A stretch of DNA of 64,000 bases from Candidatus Margulisiibacteriota bacterium (lineage in GTDB: Bacteria; Margulisbacteria; WOR-1; O2-12-FULL-45-9; XYB2-FULL-48-7), in assembly GCA_025453605.1 (NCBI GenBank), contig JALOPZ010000002.1, forward strand, positions 388,631 to 452,630, in the 5' to 3' direction. The notes below the pieces were generated by a model, which was given only the letters and a program-made list of their open reading frames with translations, was not told the DNA's origin and did not search any database. Of the stretch, positions 8,451-50,155 are shown piece after piece. A program made the translations under genes and the position numbers. Within the stretch, counting starts at the first letter, position 1. Each line of letters begins with the position of its first letter.

Positions 8451-9182
8451 TCAGGCGGTCAAACCGCCGTCAACGACCATGGTCTGGCCCTGGACATAGG
8501 ACGAATCGGCCGAAGCGAGAAAAACAACCGCGCGGGCGACCTCGGCCGGCTTTCCGGCCTTACCCAGCGGGATCATTTTCAGATATTTACTTTTCAATGA
8601 GTCGGTCAGTTCCGATTCGATCAGTCCGGGCGCGACCGAGTTGACCCGAATGTTATAACGCGAAACTTCTTGCACCAGCGAGCGGGTCAACCCCGCGATC
8701 CCCGCTTTGGCCGCCGCGTAGTTCGCCTGGCCCTCCACGCCGCGGAGCGCGGAGACAGAGGAGACGTTGACGATCGCGCCGCTCTTGCGGGCGATCATCG
8801 GCTTAAGGACCGCCTGGCAGCAGTTAAAGATCCCTTTCAAATTGACGTTCAAGACCTCATCCCATTCCGCTTCAGACATCAGCATTAAGAGTTTGTCGCG
8901 GACAATGCCGGCATTATTGACCAGAATGTCGATCCGGCCGAAGCGGCGGAGGACCTCGGCCACTGCTTTTTCGACCGCAGCCGACTTTTCAACTTGAATG
9001 GCTAACGGAAAGGCGCGTCCACCGGCTGCCTTGATCTGCTTGACTGTTCGGAGCGCGGCCGCTTTATTGCGCCCGTAACCAACAACTACCAACGCCCCTC
9101 CCCTGGCCAATTCAAGGGCGATGGCCCCACCCAGTGCGCCGGAACCGCCAGTCACCACTGCCACCTGATTTTCCAGCTTCAT
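8451..9182 (-). CDS. 3-oxoacyl-ACP reductase (SDR, FabG-like)
   Basis: VTGGSGALGGAIA...NNAG...YAAAKAG, with the Rossmann motif and the SDR Tyr-x3-Lys. Confidence 0.8.
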   Translation of the reverse strand: MKLENQVAVVTGGSGALGGAIALELARGGALVVVGYGRNKAAALRTVKQIKAAGGRAFPLAIQVEKSAAVEKAVAEVLRRFGRIDILVNNAGIVRDKLLMLMSEAEWDEVLNVNLKGIFNCCQAVLKPMIARKSGAIVNVSSVSALRGVEGQANYAAAKAGIAGLTRSLVQEVSRYNIRVNSVAPGLIESELTDSLKSKYLKMIPLGKAGKPAEVARAVVFLASADSSYVQGQTMVVDGGLTA

Positions 9183-13754: not shown

Positions 13755-16031
13755 TCAGGCTTTTTTCGGCTTCTTTTCGGGAGCTTTCTGCAACTGGCGG
13801 CTCCGTTCGGCCCGTTCCGCGTTGCTCCGTTTATCGGCCGCCTTAGCGGTCGCTTCCCGTTCCTGCTGCCGTTTCTCAGCCGTTTTCTGGTCGGCGCGGC
13901 GGCTGGCCGCCTTTCTGGCTTCGTTGGCCGCCTCCACTTTTTTGTTAGCGGCGATCTCGTTGCCCTTTTCGGTAAAATCTTCCTTATCCTGATTATATTC
14001 GCGCTCGTTAGCTTTGCGCACATGCGCCCGCTCCCCGGCCAGGCGGAGCCCCATCCCGTTGCCGCTCTTGTAGAGCTGGCCGAGCAGGTGGACGACCCAG
14101 TTCTTGGTGTAGGCCGTGCCGGAGGTCGCGGTCGTCGAGTTCAGGCCAACAAACTGCATCCCGGAGTAAGCCGGGTGGTAATAATCCTCGTTCTGCTTGG
14201 TGTTCATCGTCACCCCATAGAGCGAGCTGACGATCGAACGCCAGTAAACCGTTTCGTCATTCGGGGATAACCTGGTCGCGCCTCCACCCGATCCGTTATT
14301 GGCGATCAGGATAACACTATCGGCAAATTTTCGGTCGTAACCGTAAGCGGCTGTCCGCTGCTCCGCGGCATACTTGTGAACGTTATAAACATATGCGCCG
14401 TTCACCGGGGTCCATTTAATATCTTCAGTAAAATCGGCCCCGCCCGGCCCGCCAAATTCGCCATAGCCGATCGCGACCCATTTCCCCTCTTTATCCTGGA
14501 CATAATCGTTGGTCCCGATCGTCACCGGAATCCCGCTGACCGCCAACCCGATCCCGAGGTCGCCGCCATAATTTACCTGGTTCGCCTCGCGAGCATAATA
14601 ATTTCCGAACCAGCTCTTGATAAAGGCATTAGCCTTGTCGTAGAGCTTCTTGCGGTTCAGAAAATCCTGCTTTTCCGCGTCGCTTAGCTCATCGACGTCC
14701 GTGTTGTCATATTGCTCCTGGGTCAGGCCGGAATAAGTGTACCGCCAGGTAAAAAGGTTCTGGCTGGCCAGGTCGGAATCCTGATCGACCGATGGGGTAT
14801 GATCGTTCATCCGATAATTTTCGTAGTCGCCCAGATAGTCGTTGAACTGGCGGGCCCCCATCGCCTGGGAAAAATCCCAGAACCGCATATTATCCAGCTG
14901 GGAGAGACTTAAACCAGCATTTTTGTTCCCTTCCCAGTACGCAGTCATGTGATTGGTGACGGTATGCTGGAGCTGAAAATAATTGGTAAAAAGGGAGATC
15001 TCATGGTAGTTATAATACGGCTTGTGCGCCCGAACAAAGGCATCGATATGCGTCATCATCTGTTTGTCATTACGCGTCTGATCGACCGGGCCAAAGACCT
15101 GTCGCTCCATGAACCAGATCCGGCGTGACGATTCCTTCATTGCCAGGGTGAGCATCATCTTACCGGTGGCGTCGAGGCCATTATAAGCCCCGCTCATGAC
15201 GATGTCGTAAAAGCTTTTGTTGCCAAAAGTGCTGTTCAACCAACTGGTCAACCGGGTAAAGCTCCAGCTCTCACCGGTCCAATCGCTAAGCAGCCCTAAT
15301 CCCTCGTCCCCATTGATAAAGTAGGCCTGATTGGCATCAGCCGCCCCTACCGCGTCCGGTGTCCCCGGCCGTTTGGCCCGGCTTAGGTGGTTCCACTCGC
15401 CGGCAGCGACCCGGAAATCGAGATTTTTGTACGATAACCCCATGTTCTTACCGGCCGAGACATTGGCCTGCTCATTGCTGCCGGGGCCGAACGAACCGGA
15501 TTTGTGCCGCTGGCCGGAGACCCAGTTATTGCGCCAATCGTTCAGGCCGCTACTGCCGGGATGCGACGCCTCCCAGGCTTTGAGTGAGACTTCGTTATCG
15601 ACCACGCCATTTTTGGCTAATCGTTTCATTTCTTCGTAATACCGGTACATCTTTTGGTCGTCCGCGTTGCTGCTCCCGGCCTTGCTCTTCCAATCGTCGG
15701 TGAACTGGCGCCATTCACTACCGTCGTTTTCATCGATCGTAAAGCCCCATTCGTTGAACTCTTTCAGCCAGTCATCCGTGACTCTGGTCGTTTCTTTGCC
15801 GTTCTGCAGCGCGACTCCCTCGCCTTCGTCGGCAAACGCGGTCCCTTCACAGTACATCTGCTCAAAGCCGGGGAGCCACTTCATCATCTCCTGGCCAAAA
15901 TTGGCCAGCCGGGCTAAGCCGGCATCTTTGGTGAGAAAGTTCTGCAGGTCGCGGGTCCGGGGCATAAGCTTGCGGCGCGGCGGCCGCAGCTGATATTCGT
16001 CCGTAGCGAGGAGGTTATTCCACGACGTCAT
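13755..16031 (-). CDS. Hypothetical 758-aa Trp/Tyr-rich protein with a ~110-aa Lys/Ala/Glu/Arg-rich C-terminal tail
   Basis: Long ORF. The tail ...NKKVEAANEARKAASRRADQKTAEKRQQEREATAKAADKRS...KKPKKA is histone-H1-like low complexity. Third gene of island operon 2. Confidence 0.6.
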   Translation of the reverse strand: MTSWNNLLATDEYQLRPPRRKLMPRTRDLQNFLTKDAGLARLANFGQEMMKWLPGFEQMYCEGTAFADEGEGVALQNGKETTRVTDDWLKEFNEWGFTIDENDGSEWRQFTDDWKSKAGSSNADDQKMYRYYEEMKRLAKNGVVDNEVSLKAWEASHPGSSGLNDWRNNWVSGQRHKSGSFGPGSNEQANVSAGKNMGLSYKNLDFRVAAGEWNHLSRAKRPGTPDAVGAADANQAYFINGDEGLGLLSDWTGESWSFTRLTSWLNSTFGNKSFYDIVMSGAYNGLDATGKMMLTLAMKESSRRIWFMERQVFGPVDQTRNDKQMMTHIDAFVRAHKPYYNYHEISLFTNYFQLQHTVTNHMTAYWEGNKNAGLSLSQLDNMRFWDFSQAMGARQFNDYLGDYENYRMNDHTPSVDQDSDLASQNLFTWRYTYSGLTQEQYDNTDVDELSDAEKQDFLNRKKLYDKANAFIKSWFGNYYAREANQVNYGGDLGIGLAVSGIPVTIGTNDYVQDKEGKWVAIGYGEFGGPGGADFTEDIKWTPVNGAYVYNVHKYAAEQRTAAYGYDRKFADSVILIANNGSGGGATRLSPNDETVYWRSIVSSLYGVTMNTKQNEDYYHPAYSGMQFVGLNSTTATSGTAYTKNWVVHLLGQLYKSGNGMGLRLAGERAHVRKANEREYNQDKEDFTEKGNEIAANKKVEAANEARKAASRRADQKTAEKRQQEREATAKAADKRSNAERAERSRQLQKAPEKKPKKA

Positions 16032-16049
16032 GCCTGCTCCCTAGCGGGG

Positions 16050-16376
16050 TTACCCGCCAAACAGGGAGAAGAGCTTATTGGAGAGATCGAGATCGTTCTT
16101 CTTGATAGCGAGGAGGCGATCGATCACGGAGAGCGTATCGGAGTTCCACTTGTCGGCCAGATAGGTGGCGGCCGCCGAGTCTTTTCTCACGATGTGGCCC
16201 TGGATCTCGACCGTTTCGGTCGTGTCGTCCGACATCGCTTCAACATAGGTCTTCATGTCCTGGTTGAACTTCTGCCAGAAATCGACGATCTTATCGGTAA
16301 CGCTGCTGGCGTCCTTTTCGTAGGAAGCCCCCTGTAGCTGGGATAATATTGCGTAACCGCTCTGAATTTCACTCAT
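16050..16376 (-). CDS. Hypothetical 108-aa acidic protein
   Basis: ORF between the 111-aa and 758-aa genes. It could be chaperone-like (small, acidic), but this is speculative. Confidence 0.45.
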   Translation of the reverse strand: MSEIQSGYAILSQLQGASYEKDASSVTDKIVDFWQKFNQDMKTYVEAMSDDTTETVEIQGHIVRKDSAAATYLADKWNSDTLSVIDRLLAIKKNDLDLSNKLFSLFGG

Positions 16377-16463
16377 CTTTTTCCATCTCCTTTTCCGTCC
16401 GCTTCAACCAGGGTTGCCTGATTTAAGAGGACGGGGCCCCCGGAGGGGCCACCGTCAACATTC

Positions 16464-16799
16464 TTACAGCTTCTGGGACAGCTTCGCATTGATCTGCTTG
16501 TCGAGGTTCGAGGCAGAGGCCAAGCCGCTCGCCTGGTTCTGCTGCCGCATGCTAAATTGTTCATTGACGTACAGGAAAGCCGAACCGTCAACCTTGACCG
16601 CTTTCCCGGCGCTGGTGACCACGCAACCGGCCGCATTCGCTTCGGCAGTCGTGTGACCTTTTCCCGCGTTGTAATCCGAAGCCTGGATGTCAGCACCAGA
16701 GTTCGCGTCAACGCCTTCGAAAGCATTGATGACCTGGTTTTGCCACGCATCGGTCTTTTGGTCCATCTTTATAAAAGAATCTGTCATATCTACGCTCAT
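16464..16799 (-). CDS. Hypothetical 111-aa protein (first gene of island operon 2)
   Basis: Preceded by the RBS AAAAGGGGGTGA and a ~95-nt leader from motif P2. Confidence 0.5.
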   Translation of the reverse strand: MSVDMTDSFIKMDQKTDAWQNQVINAFEGVDANSGADIQASDYNAGKGHTTAEANAAGCVVTSAGKAVKVDGSAFLYVNEQFSMRQQNQASGLASASNLDKQINAKLSQKL

Positions 16800-16869
16800 G
16801 TTCTTTCACCCCCTTTTAGTTTGGCCCGCCTGTCGAGAGCGAGCCTGATCTCCGATCCCCTTCCAATTG

Positions 16870-16898
16870 CTTATCGGGTCGAGCCCCGCAAAACTTGC
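16870..16898 (-). promoter_or_regulatory. Sigma-28-like promoter motif P2: GCAAGTTTT-GCGGGGCTCGA-CCCGATAAGC
   Basis: Reverse complement of cttatcgggtcgagccccgcaaaacttgc. It is the closest match to the E. coli FliA -10 GCCGATAA. Confidence 0.65.
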
Positions 16899-16901
16899 AT
16901 C

Positions 16902-17156
16902 CTAGACAACGGTATTTTGGACCAGCATCCCGGGGAGCGGCAGCCCGCCGAGCCCGGCCATGTAGCTTTTCACTTCGTGGGCCGCCGGCATAATAGCGTC
17001 GAGCTTGGCGCCGGCGCCGGCCGTCCCCGACCCGTCATTCCCCAAACCGAGCGCCTGGGAGACGTTATCACCGAGGGAATTAAGCGAGAGACCGCCTCCG
17101 CTCAGGTCGATCCCGTATTTGCTCTTGAGAGACTCTTCGGCGCGCAGCATGCTCAT
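16902..17156 (-). CDS. Hypothetical 85-aa Gly/Leu-rich protein
   Basis: The track ORF 16902..17219 is trimmed to the internal MSMLRAEE, because motif P3 lies inside the longer ORF's first 20 codons. Gly-rich (LGLGNDGSGTAGAGA...AGLGGLPLPGML). Confidence 0.45.
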   Translation of the reverse strand: MSMLRAEESLKSKYGIDLSGGGLSLNSLGDNVSQALGLGNDGSGTAGAGAKLDAIMPAAHEVKSYMAGLGGLPLPGMLVQNTVV

Positions 17157-17165
17157 GGCACTGTT

Positions 17166-17194
17166 ATTATCGGGGGGAGAGGCGGAAAACTTGC
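17166..17194 (-). promoter_or_regulatory. Sigma-28-like promoter motif P3: GCAAGTTTT-CCGCCTCTCCC-CCCGATAATA
   Basis: Reverse complement of ttattatcggggggagaggcggaaaacttgc. The ATG lies 9 nt downstream (leaderless-type). Confidence 0.6.
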
Positions 17195-17219
17195 ATTGCG
17201 GAGGTGACAGGGAAAACAC

Positions 17220-17408
17220 TAATTCTCACTAATTTGTCCGCTCGCGAATAACGCTAATGGGATTTTCACTAATTAGGCGAAGCACTCTAATTGACGCTTA
17301 TATCGCGAATATTGAGTAACATTAAATAATTAGCGTAGATTAGTGATGATTAGCGTCTTTAGCAAAATCCCATTAGCGATATTAGAGATCCTGGGTAATT
17401 AGTGATAA
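17220..17408. repeat. AT-rich (~35% GC) spacer with reiterated TAATTAGCG / CACTAATTAG motifs and a perfect 15-bp inverted repeat (cgctaatgggatttt at 17252-17266, aaaatcccattagcg at 17364-17378)
   Basis: Read directly from the sequence. It lies between the end of the giant operon and motif P3. No ORF of 60 aa or more. Confidence 0.7.
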
Positions 17409-17720
17409 TTAGCGTTTTGAGGGGTGGCCCAGGTCATTTAGGAGCTGGCGGATCCGGTCTATCGACGATTCCAGGGCTTTTTCTTCTTCTTCGCTGAAGC
17501 TGAAAAGCTTTTCCAGCTTCTCTTCTTTCTGCTTGTTGAGGTTCAGCAGAGCGGCCGAATTACCGTCGGCAATTTGCAGGTTGGCCGACTTGGCCAGCTG
17601 GCTCAGGTTCGCCGCAAAGCTCGGGCCGTTCTGGGCCTGGCTCGACGAACTCTGCTTATTGGCCGGCTTGATCGCCGCCGCGTCGTTGATAATATTCGGA
17701 TTCACGTTCCCGATGTTCAT
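17409..17720 (-). CDS. Hypothetical 103-aa Ser/Asn/Ala-rich, likely disordered protein, translationally coupled (ATGA overlap) to the giant gene
   Basis: MNIGNVNPNII...AANLSQLAKSANLQ...EEKLEKLFSFSEEEEKALESSIDRIRQLLNDLG. The size and composition are reminiscent of FlgM-type anti-sigma-28 factors, but similarity is weak. Confidence 0.45.
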   Translation of the reverse strand: MNIGNVNPNIINDAAAIKPANKQSSSSQAQNGPSFAANLSQLAKSANLQIADGNSAALLNLNKQKEEKLEKLFSFSEEEEKALESSIDRIRQLLNDLGHPSKR

Positions 17721-20700
17721 GCTGAATAGTTCCTTCCGACCCCGGCCAGAACAGCTTCTTCCTGCTGGGCCGCCAGATACCGGTCGTAGGCCGACGCCGG
17801 CTTGGCGAACCGGGGCTGCTTGGTTTCTTTCTTGACGCTGGCCTCGGTCCGGGCCGCGGCAACCTCGATCTTCTTCGCCGGCTTCTCTTCCTTGACCGGG
17901 AGCTCGCCGACACTTGCCAGGATCATCCCGGCCCGCTCAACCTCAAGATTATACAACCGCGGCGGCTGAGGCGCCAGCGGGACAACCGGGACCGGCTGCG
18001 GTTGGACCGCTGCCGTTTTGACCGGCCGGGCCGCCGCCAGCTTCTTCAAGATCTCTTCGACCGTCGCCTTATCAACCCCCTTGAGCAGAGCGAGACAGGT
18101 ATTCTCGTCCTTATTTCTCAGGTTGAGATCGGCGATCAGCTGATCGGCTTTGGAGACATAGATATCCTGCTCTTCTTCGACCCGGTGGGCATTGGCTGCC
18201 TTGGCGTCGGCCGCCTTTTGCGCGGTTGCTTCGTCGATCTTCCGGCCGGCATCCAGAGCCGCCTGTCCGGCCGCCACGATCTGCTCCCCTGCCTGCTGCG
18301 CGGCCGGTGTCGCAACGCTGGCCAGAGTCGTTGTCTGGGTCGTCGATCCGCTGCCGCTTTCGACCGCTTCACCCAGGTTCTTGAGCATGGTCTGCAGGGC
18401 GGCGATCTCTCTGTTCAGCTCCTTGATCTCGCCGCGGTTCCCTTTGATCTCCCCCATCAGTTCGTCGATCTTCCCTTTGGCCGCCTCGGTCCCGGCCAGG
18501 GCCGCTTTATGAGCTAGCTTGGCGTTCCGATATGAATCATTAATAGCTATTTTGATATTCTCTTTCTTCGTCAGGTCTGCCTGCTTAGTTTTCCGCTCTG
18601 CCGCTGTCAGCTTACCGCTCTCCAACTCCTGCCGGAGCGCGGCGATCTCCTTCTTATTCTGAACATACTGTTGCTCCAGGCTGGTCAGGTTATTGGCTGT
18701 TTTGACGACCGTCAGCGCGGCTGTCCCCTTGGCTGTCGCCAGCTCGTTGCGCTGGGCGACCAGAGCGGTGATCTCCGCCTGTTTCTGGGCGATCTCCGCC
18801 TGTTTCTGGGCGATCAGCGTCTTGATCTCCGTTTTGGTCAGCTGCTCGGGGTTACCGGCTGCCGCCTGGTTCGGAGCGGTTTTGAACTGGCCTTTGAGGC
18901 CGGATACTTCCTGTTCCAGCTTGACCTGAGCCGCTTTCCCCGATTCGATCTTGGCGTCAAAAGATTTGGTCAGGGCGTCAAGCGAATCGGCCAGGACTTT
19001 CTGGGAGCGGGCCGCCTGTTCCTGCCGCTGGAACTGGTGGGTCACGACCTGCTGGGCCGCCGCCGGATTGCCGGCCGCCGCCGCACCCGCTTCACCGGCC
19101 CGGGTCTGATCGGACGCAGTTGCCTTCTCCAGTTCGTTAACGGTCGCGATATCCGGGTTAAGGAAACTCTGGATAGTATAAACGGAGCTCTCCGGCATCA
19201 TCTTAAAGAACGAAAGGGCGGCATCGGCCTGCATTGATTTAAAACCGAGAACGTCCATCCCCTCTTCGCTCTGCGCCATCATATACTGGTGGGTCTCGAT
19301 GTCAGACTCCATACTATCGAGCGCGCCGGCAAAACCGGCCCCCTCTTCTTCACGCTCTTCAGTCGCGCAGGCGTTATTCTCTTCCTTCTTCTCTTTCCCG
19401 TCCGTTTTCTTCCCGCTCAGATCATTATGGACCGTATTCGATTTTTCATCATCGCCGGTGAAGCAGAGCGGGATCAGAGCGTTCAAGGAGCGGCCGACCA
19501 GATTGATGGTTGAGGAGAGTTTACCAACATTGCGCATGCTCCGGATCAGTTCACCCTTCTGGGAATTCAGCTTTTCTTTATCGACGTTCGATTGCGCCGG
19601 ATAGCTCTCCGCGATCTGCTTATCGATCTGCGCGATCTCTTTCTTCGTCCCGGCCCTGGCGATCGAGCACGAGAGCGAGATGGTCGAGACCGCGGCGCCA
19701 ACGAACGCCTGGGTCATCTGAACATATGCTTCGCGCTTCTGGTTCTCGCGCTGAACGATCGACTCCAGCGTCCCCTTGAGCGCCTCCAGGATCGAGAGGG
19801 CCGCCGAGCGGTTCGCTTCGACGATATCGGTCAGACTGGTGGAGGCCTGGAACTTGCCCATCGCCGCCTTGATCTCGCGCATGATCTGCATCGCCATGGC
19901 GATCGCCAGCTTGGCGTTGTATAAGCGCTCCATCCGGGTGTTGACCAACGCGGTATCGCCGCTGACGGACGAAAGACCGTAGTCGAGCGAGTTGATCAGA
20001 TCGGTCGACATCTGGCGCATGATCTCGTCTTCGCGCGCGTCCAGCTCGTCGGTCCAGTCGCCGGTTTTTTCGCTCTTCTTTTTGCCGTTCATTTCGTCGA
20101 CCGTGTCGTTGACATTGTAGTTCTTGAGCGCGCCGATATCGGCATTGGTCGTGTTGTTCGCTTCGATCACGCTGTACATGTTGGCGGCCAGGTTGCCGAG
20201 GGCCGGCAGGACCTCAGCCAACGCCATCCCGAACGAGCCGGCGGAGGTGGTCGCCATCAGGGACATGCTGGCGGCCGAGCAGGCGATATTGATCCCGCCG
20301 GTAATGCCGGCGTTGATCAGCTGTTTCTCGGCGTCACGCCCCTGGTTCATTACCGCCGCGGTCGTCCGCAGGTCGGCCGCCAGGTTGCTGACGATCCGGA
20401 GAGCGGCCGAGAAGCTGGCCTGATTGACCGATTTGGTCAGCTCCTCGGCGGCGGTCCCCGGCGCGACGCCGGTCAGCTCGCGCTGGACCGCGGCCCGGAC
20501 CTTGGCGCCGAGCGTCAAGGCATCGGAGAGGACCTGCTTCAGGGTGAAGATCCGCTGGATCTGCTTGATCGTTTTGGCGAGCTGGCTGTTGTTAAGCCCG
20601 TGGTAGCCGTCGCCGGTCCCGATCAGACCATTGGCCAGGAAGTCGAGCATCGCCTGCGCTTCCATCCGATCCAGTTTCCCCTCGATCGAATCGTCGTTGG

Positions 20701-23677
20701 CCGCCCGATTCGCCAGAAAAGCGTCCATCTCTTTGTCATTGGACCGATAGCTGATATTGCGCGATTCGTTGCTGGCGGCCAGACCGATCGAAACAGCCGA
20801 GCCGGCGATCGCCGCGCCGAGGTTAATGAACGCCCCGGCGACCGAACCGGCCGGTAAGAGCGAGACGATAAAACCGGCGATCGCGCCGACGCTCTGCCCC
20901 GCCGCGCCAGCGTTCATTTTGCCAAGGGCGATCTGCTTCTGGGTCTCCATGTTCCGGGCGGTGATGTACTGCGACAGCTGGAAGGTGATCGCCGAGGCGA
21001 CCGCCTGCCGCTGAGCAAGGAGCGCTTCGACGCTCTTCATCGTCAACCCTTCGATCGTCGATTCGCCCAGGCTCCCGCCGAAGGTCGCCTTGACCAGCCG
21101 GTTAATATCCTGCTTCTGTTTGGCGAGATAAAAAAGGACGCGGATCGCGTTGTTAAGGGCGTTCAGCTTCCGCTCGAAATTGGCGATCGCCTTGGAATCG
21201 AGGTGGTACATCCCGTCCTTGGTTTTGACCAGAAAAGCGTCGCCTTTGGCGAGGGCGCTCTCCATCTGGGCGATCTCGGCGTCAATGCTGTTAAAGACGT
21301 CGACGACCGTCTCGCCGGTGGAAGCGGTATCCGCTACCACATCAGAAGGAGTCGGCGCGCTGACATTGGGGGTGTCGATATCGCTCAAGATCTGGGAAGC
21401 GGCCAAAGCGGCGGTAGCGCCGAGCGCCGCACAAGCCGCGCCGACCGCGGTCAGCGCCGGCACCCAGGCTGGTGTCGAGGAACCGAGAGAGGCGACCGTG
21501 CAGATCGCGGCGATCACGACCGACGCGATCATCAGAACAATAGCGGCCGCCTGCATCGCCTTGGCCTGCTCCAGCCGGTCAAAGGTGTCGATGTTGAGGA
21601 GGAGCTGGTTGAAAACCGCCGCCCGCATCATCAGCTGCGAGAGGGCGGCGTCGACGATCTGGGTGGTCGGGCCGGTCATCAAGTCGGCCCCGGCGGCGAC
21701 CAGTTCGGCGTTGGTGGCAAAACCGCTCAGGCCGGTCAGCTCGCGGTAAACAGTGTTGCGGATCTCGCTCTTGAGCACGGCCAGGGCGGCGGCCATCCGG
21801 TAAGCGTTCTGTGCTTTGACGACGTTCCCCCGAACGACCTTAACCAGCTGGTCGATGTGCAGGTCCTGGATCGCGTCGCTGTTGTAGAAACCCGGTTCCG
21901 CCCATTTCACCGCTTTACCGTTGCTGCTGTAGTAGATCCCGTCGGACGAATCGCCGTCGGGATCGAAATCTTCGATCCCGAAATAATCGCGCTGGCCCGG
22001 ATCTTCTAAACTATCGAGGACCATGCCTCCAGGCACCAAAAGAATGCCGTAACCGCCCAGCTTGTCGTTGACATAATTCCAGGCCCGGGAGATCCCCTCG
22101 TACAGGACAAAGCGGATCCCGTCGACGAGATTATCGAGCACGATGTTGTCGAGGATATCGTCAACGACGACCCGGCCGATCCACTGGATAGCGTCGCCAA
22201 CACCGCCGTGAGTGCCGTAACCGCCATCCGCCCCCCACCCCTCTTTGGACGCCCAGGCCTTCTCCCACCCTTCGCCGCTAGTCCAGTTCTCGTTATCGTA
22301 GGCCCAGCCGAAAAGGGTCCAAATGATGTGGTCGACGAACTCGCCGATATAATTGAGCGCCGTGGCGATCACGTCAAGGATATTGGCTACCAGGGTCAGA
22401 CAAAACTCGACCGGGTTACGGGTCATATTGATCCCCATCTGACCCAGGTTAAGGACCTGGCCGATGATCGCACCACCGACCCCCAGTTCTTCTCCCAGCC
22501 AGTTCTGGCCGGCGCGCAGACACCCCCCCATACCGGACCAGAATTCATCCCAGCCGCCCGACCACATCTTGTCCCAGGCGGCGTCGCAGTCGTCGATCGC
22601 CTCCATCTCCTCGAGCTTCTTGTTGACTTCCTCCATCTTATCGTCGATCTGCTTGCCGAATTCATCCAGCTTGACCGTCAGCGCGCCCAGCCCGGAGGCG
22701 ACCGAAAGGGCCAGCATCCCCATCGCGCTGTTCTCCGGCATCTGCGCCAGCCCGTCGGTCATCTCTTTGATCATCGTCTGGATCAGCTGCTTGAACACTT
22801 CCAGGTTCCGCTTCATCGCTTCCAGGTACTGTTTCTGGTCCTGGCAGATCTTCCGGTTCAGCTTCTGGGCCTCATAACCTTGCGACCACCAGTTCGACCA
22901 CTTAAAGCCGCTGCTGTTCGACTCGTTCTGAGCGTCGGCCAGCTTTTTGTTGTAAACCGCGGTGTTATGGGTGTTGACCTCTTCCAGCATCTTGGCAAAA
23001 CCTTGCTGAGAAGCTTTCAGGATACCGGAGAAAAGCTTGAGGACGCCGGCGCGCATACTGGCCGATTTACCGCCGTTATCCATCTGCTGGCCGGTATAGA
23101 TCTCGTCGATCAGGTTGTTGATATCCCCCTTGAGCGACATGGCGATCGCCAGGCCGAGGAGCATGTTGAGGTAATGCATCATCTTGCGGGTGAACTCTTT
23201 AAGCGCCTCGTCCTTGAGGTAATAATAACCGTCGGCGCCGGCGCTGGTGTCGATCATTTTATCGGGATCAAAACCGCTGAAGAGGCCGTCCAGCCCTGCG
23301 TCAACAGTGCCGAAAGCTTCTTCCGCGCCGTAGTCGCCGGTCTCGGTCGGGGCGCCGGTCTGGCCAGCGCCAGTAGTCGGGCAAGCATCGCCAGGCTGAC
23401 CGACGCCAGGGTTAACCGGCATGGTCGCCAGGCCGTAAGCGGCAGAGTTGACAACGTAGTTGTCGCCTTCCCGCCCGGCGGCGCGAATATGGGGAGCGGG
23501 GGGATTGGTCCCGGCGGTGACGGTTGCCGCGTCGGGGCCGTTCAACTCCGCCCCGGCCGCCAGGATCGGATCGGCGGTCACAAACTGCGGTTGAGCGGCA
23601 GCGGCGGATGAGCCAAGGAGCTCACCATCGCGGGTGATGTTCTTAATATCAGGGGCTTGAATGGTCGGTGCTGTCAT
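17717..23677 (-). CDS. Giant 1986-aa protein with multiple Ala/Gly-rich hydrophobic segments and a ~600-aa C-terminal coiled-coil region
   Basis: Single uninterrupted ORF with host codon usage. Hydrophobic or glycine-zipper stretches (AAAIVLMIASVVIAAICTVASLG..., AGFIVSLLPAGSVAGAFINLGAAIAGSAVSIGLAA, GITGGINIACSAASMSLMATTSAG). Heptad-like repeats (IAQKQAEIAQKQAEITALVAQRNELA). Trp-rich acidic segment (WDKMWSGGWDEFWSGMGG). Preceded by motif P4. Confidence 0.7.
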   Translation of the reverse strand: MTAPTIQAPDIKNITRDGELLGSSAAAAQPQFVTADPILAAGAELNGPDAATVTAGTNPPAPHIRAAGREGDNYVVNSAAYGLATMPVNPGVGQPGDACPTTGAGQTGAPTETGDYGAEEAFGTVDAGLDGLFSGFDPDKMIDTSAGADGYYYLKDEALKEFTRKMMHYLNMLLGLAIAMSLKGDINNLIDEIYTGQQMDNGGKSASMRAGVLKLFSGILKASQQGFAKMLEEVNTHNTAVYNKKLADAQNESNSSGFKWSNWWSQGYEAQKLNRKICQDQKQYLEAMKRNLEVFKQLIQTMIKEMTDGLAQMPENSAMGMLALSVASGLGALTVKLDEFGKQIDDKMEEVNKKLEEMEAIDDCDAAWDKMWSGGWDEFWSGMGGCLRAGQNWLGEELGVGGAIIGQVLNLGQMGINMTRNPVEFCLTLVANILDVIATALNYIGEFVDHIIWTLFGWAYDNENWTSGEGWEKAWASKEGWGADGGYGTHGGVGDAIQWIGRVVVDDILDNIVLDNLVDGIRFVLYEGISRAWNYVNDKLGGYGILLVPGGMVLDSLEDPGQRDYFGIEDFDPDGDSSDGIYYSSNGKAVKWAEPGFYNSDAIQDLHIDQLVKVVRGNVVKAQNAYRMAAALAVLKSEIRNTVYRELTGLSGFATNAELVAAGADLMTGPTTQIVDAALSQLMMRAAVFNQLLLNIDTFDRLEQAKAMQAAAIVLMIASVVIAAICTVASLGSSTPAWVPALTAVGAACAALGATAALAASQILSDIDTPNVSAPTPSDVVADTASTGETVVDVFNSIDAEIAQMESALAKGDAFLVKTKDGMYHLDSKAIANFERKLNALNNAIRVLFYLAKQKQDINRLVKATFGGSLGESTIEGLTMKSVEALLAQRQAVASAITFQLSQYITARNMETQKQIALGKMNAGAAGQSVGAIAGFIVSLLPAGSVAGAFINLGAAIAGSAVSIGLAASNESRNISYRSNDKEMDAFLANRAANDDSIEGKLDRMEAQAMLDFLANGLIGTGDGYHGLNNSQLAKTIKQIQRIFTLKQVLSDALTLGAKVRAAVQRELTGVAPGTAAEELTKSVNQASFSAALRIVSNLAADLRTTAAVMNQGRDAEKQLINAGITGGINIACSAASMSLMATTSAGSFGMALAEVLPALGNLAANMYSVIEANNTTNADIGALKNYNVNDTVDEMNGKKKSEKTGDWTDELDAREDEIMRQMSTDLINSLDYGLSSVSGDTALVNTRMERLYNAKLAIAMAMQIMREIKAAMGKFQASTSLTDIVEANRSAALSILEALKGTLESIVQRENQKREAYVQMTQAFVGAAVSTISLSCSIARAGTKKEIAQIDKQIAESYPAQSNVDKEKLNSQKGELIRSMRNVGKLSSTINLVGRSLNALIPLCFTGDDEKSNTVHNDLSGKKTDGKEKKEENNACATEEREEEGAGFAGALDSMESDIETHQYMMAQSEEGMDVLGFKSMQADAALSFFKMMPESSVYTIQSFLNPDIATVNELEKATASDQTRAGEAGAAAAGNPAAAQQVVTHQFQRQEQAARSQKVLADSLDALTKSFDAKIESGKAAQVKLEQEVSGLKGQFKTAPNQAAAGNPEQLTKTEIKTLIAQKQAEIAQKQAEITALVAQRNELATAKGTAALTVVKTANNLTSLEQQYVQNKKEIAALRQELESGKLTAAERKTKQADLTKKENIKIAINDSYRNAKLAHKAALAGTEAAKGKIDELMGEIKGNRGEIKELNREIAALQTMLKNLGEAVESGSGSTTQTTTLASVATPAAQQAGEQIVAAGQAALDAGRKIDEATAQKAADAKAANAHRVEEEQDIYVSKADQLIADLNLRNKDENTCLALLKGVDKATVEEILKKLAAARPVKTAAVQPQPVPVVPLAPQPPRLYNLEVERAGMILASVGELPVKEEKPAKKIEVAAARTEASVKKETKQPRFAKPASAYDRYLAAQQEEAVLAGVGRNYSA

Positions 23678-23684
23678 TACAAAT

Positions 23685-23714
23685 ATATATCGGTCCGAAG
23701 GGGGAAAAACTTGC
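23685..23714 (-). promoter_or_regulatory. Sigma-28-like promoter motif P4: GCAAGTTTT-TCCCCCTTCGG-ACCGATATATA
   Basis: Reverse complement of tatatatcggtccgaagggggaaaaacttgc. The ATG lies 8 nt downstream of the CCGATATA element. Confidence 0.6.
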
Positions 23715-23731
23715 GTAATTTGGGGACTTTT

Positions 23732-24964
23732 TTAGCTGGCGGATGGGACAGCAACCTGCCCCTTATTTTGCCTAATACCGTCTAAAATCTGACCGATCCG
23801 GCCGACATCCGTTTGACCTAATTGTTTAAGTGTTACCCTGATCTGCCAAAAAGCCTTGCTGTAGCCTGGCTCTTTGACATCGACCCGGGCGAGTTTCGCC
23901 TCAATTTCCGGGTTTTTAAGCTCCCGAAGCTTGCCGAGCGCCTTATCGTTCCACTCTGATTCTTCGATCGCCTTGCGCTCCGGCAGCTTACCCTCGATCA
24001 TGTACTGCCTGAGAATGGTCGCCGCGAACCGGTCGCGGGAGAGAGCGTCTGTCAACTCCATATCCAGCCCGTCGCGGGACATTTCGCCCTGAAGCTGCAA
24101 AGCCAGTTTGTAAAAGACCATCAGCGCCTGCTGTTGTTCGTGCTTTGAACCGTTGAGCAGCTCAGCCAGTTGGCTGGCCACGTCGTCGGCCCGGTATTCG
24201 CCGTCCTGAGGCGGGAAGTAAGCCTCCATCAGCGCCCGATGCCGCGAGGTCATCAGCTTGAGTTCTTCATGATTGTTTTCCGTCAATCCTCTGGCCACCG
24301 CCAGCAGGTTTTTGGCGCCGATCAATGTCCGGATCCGGGAGGCGGACAAAAAAGTCCGCGCGTCCTGACCGGTCCCACGCAAATAGGTTTTCCCCTGGCG
24401 CAAATTCTCGACCAGTTCACCGGTTGAGACTTTGTCCTTATCACCCATCAGACTGTGCCACTGCTGTTCGCCCACTTTCTGGCCGATCATCTCGGCAAAA
24501 TCCTCTCTGGTGATCCCCCCGCGCAGCTCCGCGGCGGTAAGGACCCTCATAAATTTATCCCGCGGCAGGCTGGCGACGTCGCCGCTCAGAAAATAGACAG
24601 TTTCAAAATAAGCATCCACCCCATCGTTAGCCGGCCGTCCGTTGGGTACAGCGGTCTGGCGCCCCCCCGCGACAGCCACCTTCCCACCCCCGGCCGCTGG
24701 GGCATCCCCTTTGATCTCCGTATCGGCCAGCAACCCGTCATCCCCGGCCACCGCTTTCCACTCCTTTTCGGAGAGAGAGATCTTGACCGTGTCGGAGCAA
24801 TAATCCTGCAGCTCCTTCAGGCTGATCTGTTTATCGCCATCCTGATCGAGCAGCTTGATCTCCCCATCGGCCCCCTGTTTGCTCGAGGAGGCGCTAAGCT
24901 TATTCTTACCGACATATGACGCCACCTGCCGGGCGCTCAATAAGACTTTACCGGTTTCGTTCAT
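23732..24964 (-). CDS. Hypothetical 410-aa protein with an N-terminal EF-hand-like Ca-binding loop
   Basis: DQDGDKQISLKELQDY fits the canonical 12-residue EF-hand loop D-x-D-x-D-x-x-I-x-x-x-E. The rest is unrecognised. Last gene of island operon 5. Confidence 0.55.
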   Translation of the reverse strand: MNETGKVLLSARQVASYVGKNKLSASSSKQGADGEIKLLDQDGDKQISLKELQDYCSDTVKISLSEKEWKAVAGDDGLLADTEIKGDAPAAGGGKVAVAGGRQTAVPNGRPANDGVDAYFETVYFLSGDVASLPRDKFMRVLTAAELRGGITREDFAEMIGQKVGEQQWHSLMGDKDKVSTGELVENLRQGKTYLRGTGQDARTFLSASRIRTLIGAKNLLAVARGLTENNHEELKLMTSRHRALMEAYFPPQDGEYRADDVASQLAELLNGSKHEQQQALMVFYKLALQLQGEMSRDGLDMELTDALSRDRFAATILRQYMIEGKLPERKAIEESEWNDKALGKLRELKNPEIEAKLARVDVKEPGYSKAFWQIRVTLKQLGQTDVGRIGQILDGIRQNKGQVAVPSAS

Positions 24965-49594: not shown

Positions 49595-50095
49595 TTACAG
49601 CTTCGCTCCCGCCCGGTTGTCCCAACCCTGGGTGCTCTCCCCGCTCTTTGAACCGTCGGGGTGGAGCTCGATATTGTTCCAGCTGATCGTCTCATAGGCG
49701 AGCGTCACTTCTTCGATCAGCGCGCTCTCATACTTCAGCTCGACATTCTTGACAGTCGCTTTACCGAGCGTGATCTTGGTCACGACCATCATGCTGCCGC
49801 CGACCGGCTTCATCACATCGATCACCAGCGAAGGGTAAACGGTACCGTCCAGACAGGCCGCGAACAGCGTGTTGCTCGCCGCGTCCAGGTTTTTCTCGAT
49901 GACCAGCGGCCCCGAGCCGCCCGTCTTGTTCGACATTTTCAGCGCCACGAGCCCGACCCCGTCCCGGTGTTCCCGGTCGGTCACCTCACCCTTGAGCCCC
50001 GGCCCGGTCAGGACCATATTGTAAGCGGCAAAAGCGGGGACAACCGTCAGAGCCAGCAGGATCAGAACACCAACTAACTTTGTTTTCATTTGCAT
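49595..50095 (-). CDS. Hcp-family (T6SS tube/phage tail tube-like) protein carrying an N-terminal Sec signal peptide
   Basis: After MQMKTKLVGVLILLALTVVPAFA, the mature part aligns with Hcp1. GLKGEVTDREHRDGVGLVALKMS matches DVKGESKDKTHAEEIDVLAWSWGMS, NLDAASNTLFAACLDGTVYP matches YIDKSTPNLMMACSSGKHYP, and the C-terminal ETISWNNIE...GWDN matches that of Hcp1. Confidence 0.6.
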   Translation of the reverse strand: MQMKTKLVGVLILLALTVVPAFAAYNMVLTGPGLKGEVTDREHRDGVGLVALKMSNKTGGSGPLVIEKNLDAASNTLFAACLDGTVYPSLVIDVMKPVGGSMMVVTKITLGKATVKNVELKYESALIEEVTLAYETISWNNIELHPDGSKSGESTQGWDNRAGAKL

Positions 50096-50155
50096 CCTCC
50101 TTATCCAACTTATAAAGTATAGCATAAAGCATCATTTGGCCGTCCAGACCACTTG

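Follow-up and report, generated by a model that had tools for sequence, protein, structure and literature searches.

The AT-rich spacer analysed here is a single imperfect palindrome assembled from inward-facing 7-nt words, and we consider it probable that it is an ORF-less, MITE/REPIN-like member of a family of word-array palindromes associated with genes for GxxExxY proteins. Members of this family are dispersed through other bacterial genomes, the arrays of the family are linked to GxxExxY genes, and the palindrome is absent from the corresponding sites of the orthologous loci. Judged by these sequence comparisons, the spacer is not a control region specific to its operon. It is most likely an inserted repeat that ends one gene and precedes the next promoter, rather than a bespoke regulatory region, and the operator, small-RNA and terminator functions that an earlier sequence-only reading had suggested for it are at best partly right. 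The window denotes the whole stretch of 64,000 nucleotides that was analysed.

Architecture of the palindrome and its locus

The palindrome lies in a series of minus-strand genes that follow each other in the order 1986 aa, 103 aa, palindrome spacer, 84 aa, 111 aa, 108 aa and 758 aa. The features of the element and its immediate surroundings are as follows.

17717-23677, minus strand: giant 1986-aa gene; no Pfam match
17409-17720, minus strand: 103-aa gene, the last of the giant-gene operon; no Pfam match; its final codons and stop lie inside the element
17213-17418, no strand: whole element, with concentric inverted repeats, RNA and DNA fold z-scores and the sole profile HMM match in the window
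17213-17234, plus strand: outer left terminal repeat AAAACACTAATTCTCACTAATT, two heptamers 10 nt apart; inverted repeat I2, 22 nt, 91%
17397-17418, minus strand: outer right terminal repeat, minus-strand reading AAAACGCTAATTATCACTAATT; I2; holds the stop codon of the upstream gene
17242-17266, plus strand: middle left arm, CGCGAAT (17243) and CGCTAATGGGATTTT (17252-17266); inverted repeat I1, 25 nt, 88%
17364-17388, minus strand: middle right arm including AAAATCCCATTAGCG (17364-17378); I1; the 15-mer core is perfect
17284-17301, plus strand: inner left arm with the degenerate heptamers CTCTAAT (17285) and CGCTTAT (17295)
17328-17355, minus strand: inner right arm, three phased heptamers (17329, 17339, 17349)
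17302-17327, no strand: central loop, largely unpaired in the MFE structures, without ORF remnant
17217, 17227, 17252, 17267, plus strand: CRCTAAT in the left half (n = 4)
17329, 17339, 17349, 17372, 17398, 17408, minus strand: CRCTAAT in the right half (n = 6)
17243 and 17304: CGCGAAT variants
17167-17194, minus strand: sigma-28 (FliA)-like promoter GCAAGTTT-N12-CCCGATAA; flanking context, outside the element
16902-17156, minus strand: 84-aa gene, downstream, ATG at 17156; gene call in L001; no Pfam match

The 206-bp element is wider than positions 17220-17408, to which the spacer had originally been assigned. Because its inverted repeats are concentric around ~17315, the whole spacer is one long imperfect palindrome. 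The sequence-only reading had recognised an AT-rich spacer packed with repeats and dyads, which is real, but it missed this concentricity, and the repeats are more ordered than it described. The GC content of the element is 35% compared to 59.5% in the window (the genome had been put at ~68%), and 17220-17408, at 35.4%, is the lowest-GC 200-bp stretch of the window.

The order is most evident in the words. Ten of the 11 CRCTAAT matches in the 64 kb fall inside the palindrome. All its heptamers read towards the centre, mostly at 10-nt spacing, and doublets with a 10-nt period stand at both ends (17217/17227 and 17398/17408). When variants are counted, the left arm carries six heptamers on the plus strand and the right arm six on the minus strand, seen as CRCKAAT in the 5' arm and ATTMGYG in the 3' arm. 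The phased doublet CRCTAATNNNCRCTAAT, with two mismatches or fewer, was matched six times in the window and five of these matches were within the element, whereas 0.61 matches were expected; a count of six was reached by none of 100 shuffles. The 15-bp perfect inverted repeat noticed earlier was recovered as described (CGCTAATGGGATTTT/AAAATCCCATTAGCG at 17252-17266 and 17364-17378, with the arms 97 nt apart), and the element indeed contains no ORF of 60 aa or more. The motif counts given for the spacer held in part: the exact strings are fewer than claimed (AATTAGCG twice, CACTAATTAG once), and the five copies exist as the 7-mer ATTAGCG or its complement. No other long palindrome was found in the 64-kb window, and neither a tRNA/tmRNA scan nor a promoter/terminator scan detected anything within this one.

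On its upstream side the element reaches into coding sequence, as the TAA stop codon of the 103-aa gene (17409-17411) falls within the outermost heptamer, CGCTAAT. The word CRCTAAT contains TAA and its complement contains TAG, and three words at 10-nt spacing stop all three frames; the three words of the inner right arm accordingly place a minus-strand TAA in every frame. On the downstream side, the sigma-28-like promoter begins 19 bp past the end of the palindrome and leaves 11 bp to the ATG that starts the 84-aa gene. The consensus of sigma-28/FliA promoters is TAAAGTTT-N11-GCCGATAA, which GCAAGTTT-N12-CCCGATAA closely resembles. A second GCAAGTTT-N12-CCCGATAA is present at 16871-16898 on the minus strand, ahead of the next small orphan gene, and the motif is kept in both related loci (L003 at 8847-8872 and L006 at about 1306-1335). 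No flagellar, FliA or FlgM Pfam domain was detected near the sigma-28-like promoters, and the idea that the neighbouring small proteins are FlgM or flagellar proteins was dropped, as it had no Pfam support even at E = 10.

The surrounding minus-strand orphan cluster (13755-24964; 410, 1986, 103, 84, 111, 108 and 758 aa) has no Pfam match at all. For its 758-aa protein, named 'TolA' by NCBI, 5.8 billion clustered proteins yielded only two homologues (40% and 33% identity), and the gene order of the cluster is kept in the two metagenomic lineages that carry them. The wider neighbourhood consists of chromosomal housekeeping and orphan genes (ispF, pdxJ, secA, prfB). The precomputed annotation also places a T6SS Hcp (PF05638) gene at 49595-50125 on the minus strand, and no other T6SS genes were noticed in the window.

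An identical palindrome sequence is present in the metagenomic contig Ga0392394_0000002. In an independent assembly of the same organism (L002, 4308-4323; sample 3300037408) the contig ends 17 nt into the palindrome, a break that fits a repeat or hairpin which assembles poorly.

A dispersed family of word arrays

When a 20-mer of the terminal repeat was used as a probe against JGI metagenome contigs, a collection that does not include the window's own contig, 35 loci were found, and about 10 of them had additional phased heptamers, variants of the CACGAAT/CGCGAAT type or a small gene beside the array. A three-heptamer pattern matched at least 120 loci from at least 85 assemblies in the GTDB species genomes, against a chance expectation of ~12 loci estimated for equiprobable bases. 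The exact 15-mer CGCTAATGGGATTTT was also tried on viral contigs; its 45 single matches were taken as chance and the probe was dropped. Among the matches listed, the hosts were Bacteroidota, Verrucomicrobiota, Planctomycetota, Omnitrophota, many CPR lineages, Chloroflexota, Desulfobacterota and others, and cultured Pedobacter and Flavobacterium carry the arrays as well. The arrays occur in unrelated intergenic contexts, put at hundreds, across at least 10 phyla and may be numerous within one assembly: they were seen on at least 10 contigs in Opitutaceae Nm470_bin120 and on at least five contigs each in Sphingobacteriaceae nzgw119 and Omnitrophota MAG073. Two sibling copies (L093 and L107) lie in different genomic contexts of one genome.

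The GTDB loci listed contain 128 clusters of at least four heptamers, 38 of them convergent and 2 divergent, and among these matches only 3 of the 128 clusters lie inside long ORFs. The arrays are AT-rich whatever the GC content of the host (e.g., 0.29-0.34 in hosts of 0.63-0.67), and the 7-nt words are conserved across hosts ranging from 27% to 67% GC. The dominant word spacing is 10 nt (253 cases, versus 70 at 9 nt). We built a profile HMM (nhmmer) from the 38 convergent GTDB palindromes, none of which came from the window, and all its matches in the window were located within 17202-17429 (best E = 1.1e-11). The window palindrome thus belongs to the family, since a profile of independent members matches the window there and nowhere else. 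It is larger than the usual gene-less copies (206 bp versus 80-130 bp), and its arms are unusually complementary. No second copy and no GxxExxY gene were found in the window and both its flanks, i.e., in ~81 kb of the 527-kb contig.

In the family, symmetry dies away 3-4 nt beyond the outer heptamers and no direct repeat recurs there; the flanks of the window palindrome have CCCT on both sides, which is the only candidate for a target-site duplication and is not convincing. Among ORFs of at least 90 codons in the related loci, none extends more than 35 nt into an array, and 30 of the 149 ORFs that end near arrays stop inside the first words, as does the 103-aa gene of the window.

Some sites recur. 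In two distant CPR lineages, a palindrome of 4 + 4 heptamers fills the rplN-rplX junction both in a Paceibacterota MAG (L129, 3542-3619) and in a Moranbacteria MAG (L158, 1657-1747), and another common site lies beside an mraY-like gene (L111, L131, L198). Such sharing could point to a role for the host rather than selfish spread, or to a hot spot for insertion. In Opitutaceae Nm470_bin120 (L104, L107, L115, L127, L130, L177) the intergenic regions that hold CACTAAT palindromes also contain palindromic arrays made of other words (CACGGAT, CACAGAT, CGCGAAA, ACGAAGG), and a CACTAAT core is nested within the longer palindrome GGTTCGTTTTTTGTTAAC...GTTAACAAAAAACGAACC.

The Rfam search that the sequence-only reading had proposed as a check for a structured RNA assigned the palindrome to no family. 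With Rfam 15 at the gathering threshold nothing in the window matched at the palindrome, and in E-value mode the sole match there was a generic long-hairpin miRNA precursor, at 23 bits against a threshold of 110 bits. In 18 related loci no Rfam family overlapped the arrays, the Flavo-1 matches lying elsewhere in those loci. The searchable literature gave no description of the word arrays under GxxExxY, PF13366, TIGR04256 or the heptamer strings. The word-array palindromes are apparently a widespread, undescribed class of small repeat elements.

Association with GxxExxY genes

The only protein family enriched beside the arrays is a ~125-aa GxxExxY protein, which matches TIGR04256 'GxxExxY protein' and PF13366 PDDEXK_3 at E = 1e-33 to 1e-38. 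The residues of the G..E..Y signature and the predicted nuclease residues D71, E81 and K83 are invariant in the alignment, and a sequence search of the PDB with this protein retrieved no solved relative. The PF13366 family has been given as 'function unknown, multiple transfers' (PMC3424549).

The arrays often enclose such a gene. When a plus-strand array was followed by a minus-strand array with 251-1500 bp between them (n = 12), a GxxExxY ORF was present in 8 pairs, and in 7 of these 8 it was the sole ORF of at least 60 aa. Arms that lie 0.4-0.6 kb apart usually enclose exactly one GxxExxY gene, which may face either way and is often separated from the arrays by just 10-40 nt. We also carried out the reverse test, starting from seven GxxExxY genes whose selection took no account of flanking arrays: six from viral contigs, retrieved by a protein-only search, and a bystander in L065 located ~6 kb from a heptamer match. 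All seven were bounded by their own 16-36-nt inverted repeat, and in six of the seven this repeat consisted of 2-3 tandem words. The words differ between elements (e.g., CCAGATGAAC, CGGAATAAA, CACGAAAGA, CGCAGAAA and CGCGAAAAG), and the mean alignment score of upstream and downstream repeats was 22.7 for cognate pairs compared to 9.3 for non-cognate ones. Taken as sequence evidence, these data define a class of ~0.5-kb cassettes in which a GxxExxY gene stands between word-array inverted repeats, together with gene-less palindromes with like arms. The relation of the two forms resembles that of an IS to a MITE or of a RAYT to a REPIN (PMC3116915, PMC3337134).

Several individual loci illustrate how such cassettes vary. 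In related phage contigs from IMG/VR (L240-L245, around 1250-2100) a GxxExxY cassette occupies the same intergenic site between two conserved genes and the word sequences differ, so the arms of these phage-contig cassettes change together at a fixed site. In a Bacteroidales MAG (L109, 2350-2657) a tandem array of 22 same-strand heptamers with a ~43-bp period, far longer than the usual arms, lies directly downstream of a GxxExxY cassette. A Sphingobacteriales MAG (L088, about 1068-2116) and Pedobacter psychrophilus (L151, 6003-6898) have the flanking genes in common; in one of the two loci the GxxExxY cassette is intact, and in the other a GxxExxY remnant is interrupted and the arrays are expanded. 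A frameshifted GxxExxY copy is present in L204.

The reading that we propose is as follows. In the family, the terminal inverted repeats consist of 7-nt words set in tandem (for this element C[AG]C[TG]AAT), which always face the centre. Full-length members of ~0.5 kb carry between their arms a single gene, that for the GxxExxY protein (TIGR04256/PF13366) with its predicted PD-(D/E)XK nuclease fold (D...ExK), and in gene-less members the two arms are folded together into an 80-200-bp palindrome dispersed in intergenic DNA. A cognate GxxExxY nuclease, supplied in trans, may recognise the words and may copy or move the element. At the locus studied here, the element would supply the stop codon of the 103-aa gene, its 10-nt-phased words would stop all three frames, and a read-through transcript would fold into an imperfect stem of roughly 100 bp, which likely uncouples or insulates the downstream promoter-driven genes from the giant operon.

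The architecture of short words in convergent arrays, whether or not they enclose a GxxExxY gene, is easy to recognise and recurs in many phyla as well as in phage contigs. We put forward, as a tentative generalisation that may well fail, that the PF13366/TIGR04256 GxxExxY proteins are the nucleases of an unrecognised cross-phylum class of ~0.5-kb minimal mobile cassettes, with words of 7-10 nt particular to each element and with gene-less hairpin derivatives, including this spacer, that range from CPR bacteria to Bacteroidota and phages; such cassettes would be an analogue of REPIN-RAYT systems based on a different enzyme. If the link is true, it gives a large uncharacterised protein family a testable role and accounts for many odd AT-rich intergenic palindromes in GC-rich genomes. 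It would also provide a marker for insertion polymorphisms and for assembly breaks in metagenomes.

Alternative readings and known systems

The palindrome could instead be an RNA element under selection, i.e., an intercistronic hairpin that terminates or attenuates transcription, is processed by RNase III or stabilises mRNA between two transcription units, although we regard this as unlikely. The mRNA-sense strand does fold very stably: a folding check, as the sequence-only reading had recommended, gave an RNA MFE of -66.4 kcal/mol compared to -37.7 ± 3.8 for shuffled sequences (z = -7.6), and none of 200 shuffles folded as well. In addition, A4 and U4 tracts flank the stem, and 24 of 29 family members are located between co-directional genes. 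However, a long hairpin is expected in any read-through RNA because the element is palindromic, and the two strands fold nearly equally well (-65.4 versus -66.4 kcal/mol); as DNA, the palindrome has an MFE of -38.6 kcal/mol (z = -6.2). The suggestion of a simple rho-independent terminator finds no counterpart in 17213-17418, where neither strand has a G+C-rich stem with a U tract. The lack of an Rfam match and the absence of the hairpin from the orthologues likewise speak against a selected RNA.

The family permits a further distinction between DNA-level and RNA-level function. In an asymmetry test of G-U versus A-C, neither the window palindrome nor the family showed a strand bias, the mRNA-sense strand being favoured in 10 cases of the family versus 14 for the antisense. 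Moreover, the 3-nt spacers between the outer heptamers are 31% complementary between the arms compared to 28% in shuffled sequences, so a simple hairpin requirement is disfavoured. Conserved words, spacers with chance-level complementarity and strands without bias together point to recognition of the words by a protein and argue against selection for an RNA hairpin. The obvious candidate for the word-recognising protein would be the cognate GxxExxY nuclease, and the RNA effects may be by-products of insertion.

A protein could also recognise the words in a purely local role, in which a dedicated regulator or a nucleoid-associated silencer sits on the heptamers, phased at 10 bp, and governs either the adjacent sigma-28-like promoter or read-through from the giant operon. 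We judge this to be quite improbable. The 10-bp phasing does place the heptamers on the same helix face, it is the words and not their pairing that are conserved in the family, the palindrome ends 19 bp upstream of the -35 motif, and the tract is AT-rich in a GC-rich genome. No regulator gene adjoins the palindrome, however, no other cluster in the 81 kb makes a regulon visible, and identical arrays stand in unrelated contexts across at least 10 phyla. The orthologous loci, whose 758-aa homologues are 40% and 33% identical to the window protein, also speak against this reading: both keep the gene order and the promoter motif and neither has the motif cluster, an absence that the sequence-only reading had itself named as refuting. 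The corresponding spacer of L003/L005 is 51 bp long, with the promoter retained and the palindrome missing, and that of L006 is an unrelated sequence of 146 bp with no heptamer cluster. The promoter is therefore conserved and the array is not, so that of the multi-site array proposed by the sequence-only reading, recognition by a protein is plausible (the words are conserved, the pairing of the arms is not), whereas a dedicated operator of this operon is unsupported. Since the related loci retain gene order and promoter without it, the palindrome has the look of sequence inserted after a stop codon and ahead of a promoter rather than of a conserved control region. This empty-site comparison (51 bp without the element in L003/L005) involves distant relatives, with 33-40% protein identity, and thus the absence of the palindrome from them cannot date an insertion.

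It is very improbable that the palindrome serves in replication or partition (as iterons or a parC-like centromere) or is what remains of an integrated plasmid or phage: two short-repeat arrays phased at 10 bp do resemble iterons or parC, yet the arrays are convergent and not direct, rep, par and phage genes are missing nearby, the neighbourhood is one of chromosomal housekeeping and orphan genes (ispF, pdxJ, secA, prfB), and the GC skew is unchanged. Readings as an integron attC site, as iteron/parC or as a replication origin were rejected on orientation, missing partner genes and context. A chance low-complexity AT-rich spacer or an assembly artefact, which would account for the low GC content and nothing else, can practically be dismissed, as the shuffles matched neither the phased-doublet count (0/100) nor the fold (0/200), the same sequence occurs in independent assemblies and the flanks are syntenic with relatives.

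The reading of the spacer as a member of the GxxExxY-associated family can be set beside several known systems. Dispersed extragenic palindromes as such are already known; the GxxExxY-associated word-array type, as far as sequence matching can tell, appears in neither Rfam 15 nor the searchable literature. Iteron or parC-type arrays and the direct-repeat operators of OmpR/PhoB-type regulators likewise consist of short words with a period of ~10 bp in two blocks. In contrast to these, the two blocks in our element are mutually inverted, there is no cognate rep, par or regulator gene, and the array is not conserved at the orthologous promoter. The intervening sequences of 23S rRNA genes in Leptospira and Coxiella form a long stem with a small ORF in its loop and are tolerated within transcription units. 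In both these sequences and the present family, one small ORF of an otherwise orphan family may sit inside a long stem. However, the word-array elements are not in rRNA, and the ORF, which encodes a four-helix bundle in the intervening sequences, is here a GxxExxY gene.

Bacterial MITEs, such as Correia elements (CREE) of Neisseria, ERIC/IRU, RUP and Nezha, are non-coding intergenic elements of 100-200 bp that are bounded by terminal inverted repeats, are co-transcribed with their neighbours and form long hairpins. The window palindrome resembles them in its terminal inverted repeats (22 nt, 91% complementary) and in the existence of a longer, gene-bearing element with the same ends. It differs from them in lacking a clear target-site duplication and in having terminal repeats built of tandem words; in addition, the putative autonomous partner is a predicted nuclease of 125 aa and not a DDE transposase, and one copy was seen in ~81 kb.

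A further parallel is offered by the REP/BIME sequences and REPIN-RAYT systems of Enterobacteria and Pseudomonas, in which extragenic palindromes are dispersed through the genome and an inverted doublet is the hairpin-forming unit (PMC3116915, PMC3337134). The RAYT gene is small and flanked by inverted REPs, and the repeat sequence is specific to the gene copy (PMC3116915, PMC3337134). Our element contains no REP unit with a GTAG/CGTC-type head and no RAYT partner, its words being CRCTAAT. The likeness lies in the combination of dispersed hairpin palindromes with a small, repeat-flanked gene whose repeats are copy-specific. The differences are these: the unit is a 7-nt word in tandem arrays instead of a 20-40-nt REP with a GTAG head, the elements are AT-rich whereas REPs are GC-rich, and the partner has the predicted PD-(D/E)XK fold of GxxExxY proteins and is not a Y1 transposase of the IS200/IS605 type. 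Moreover, in the word-array family the same words span many phyla and the gene sits inside the palindrome.
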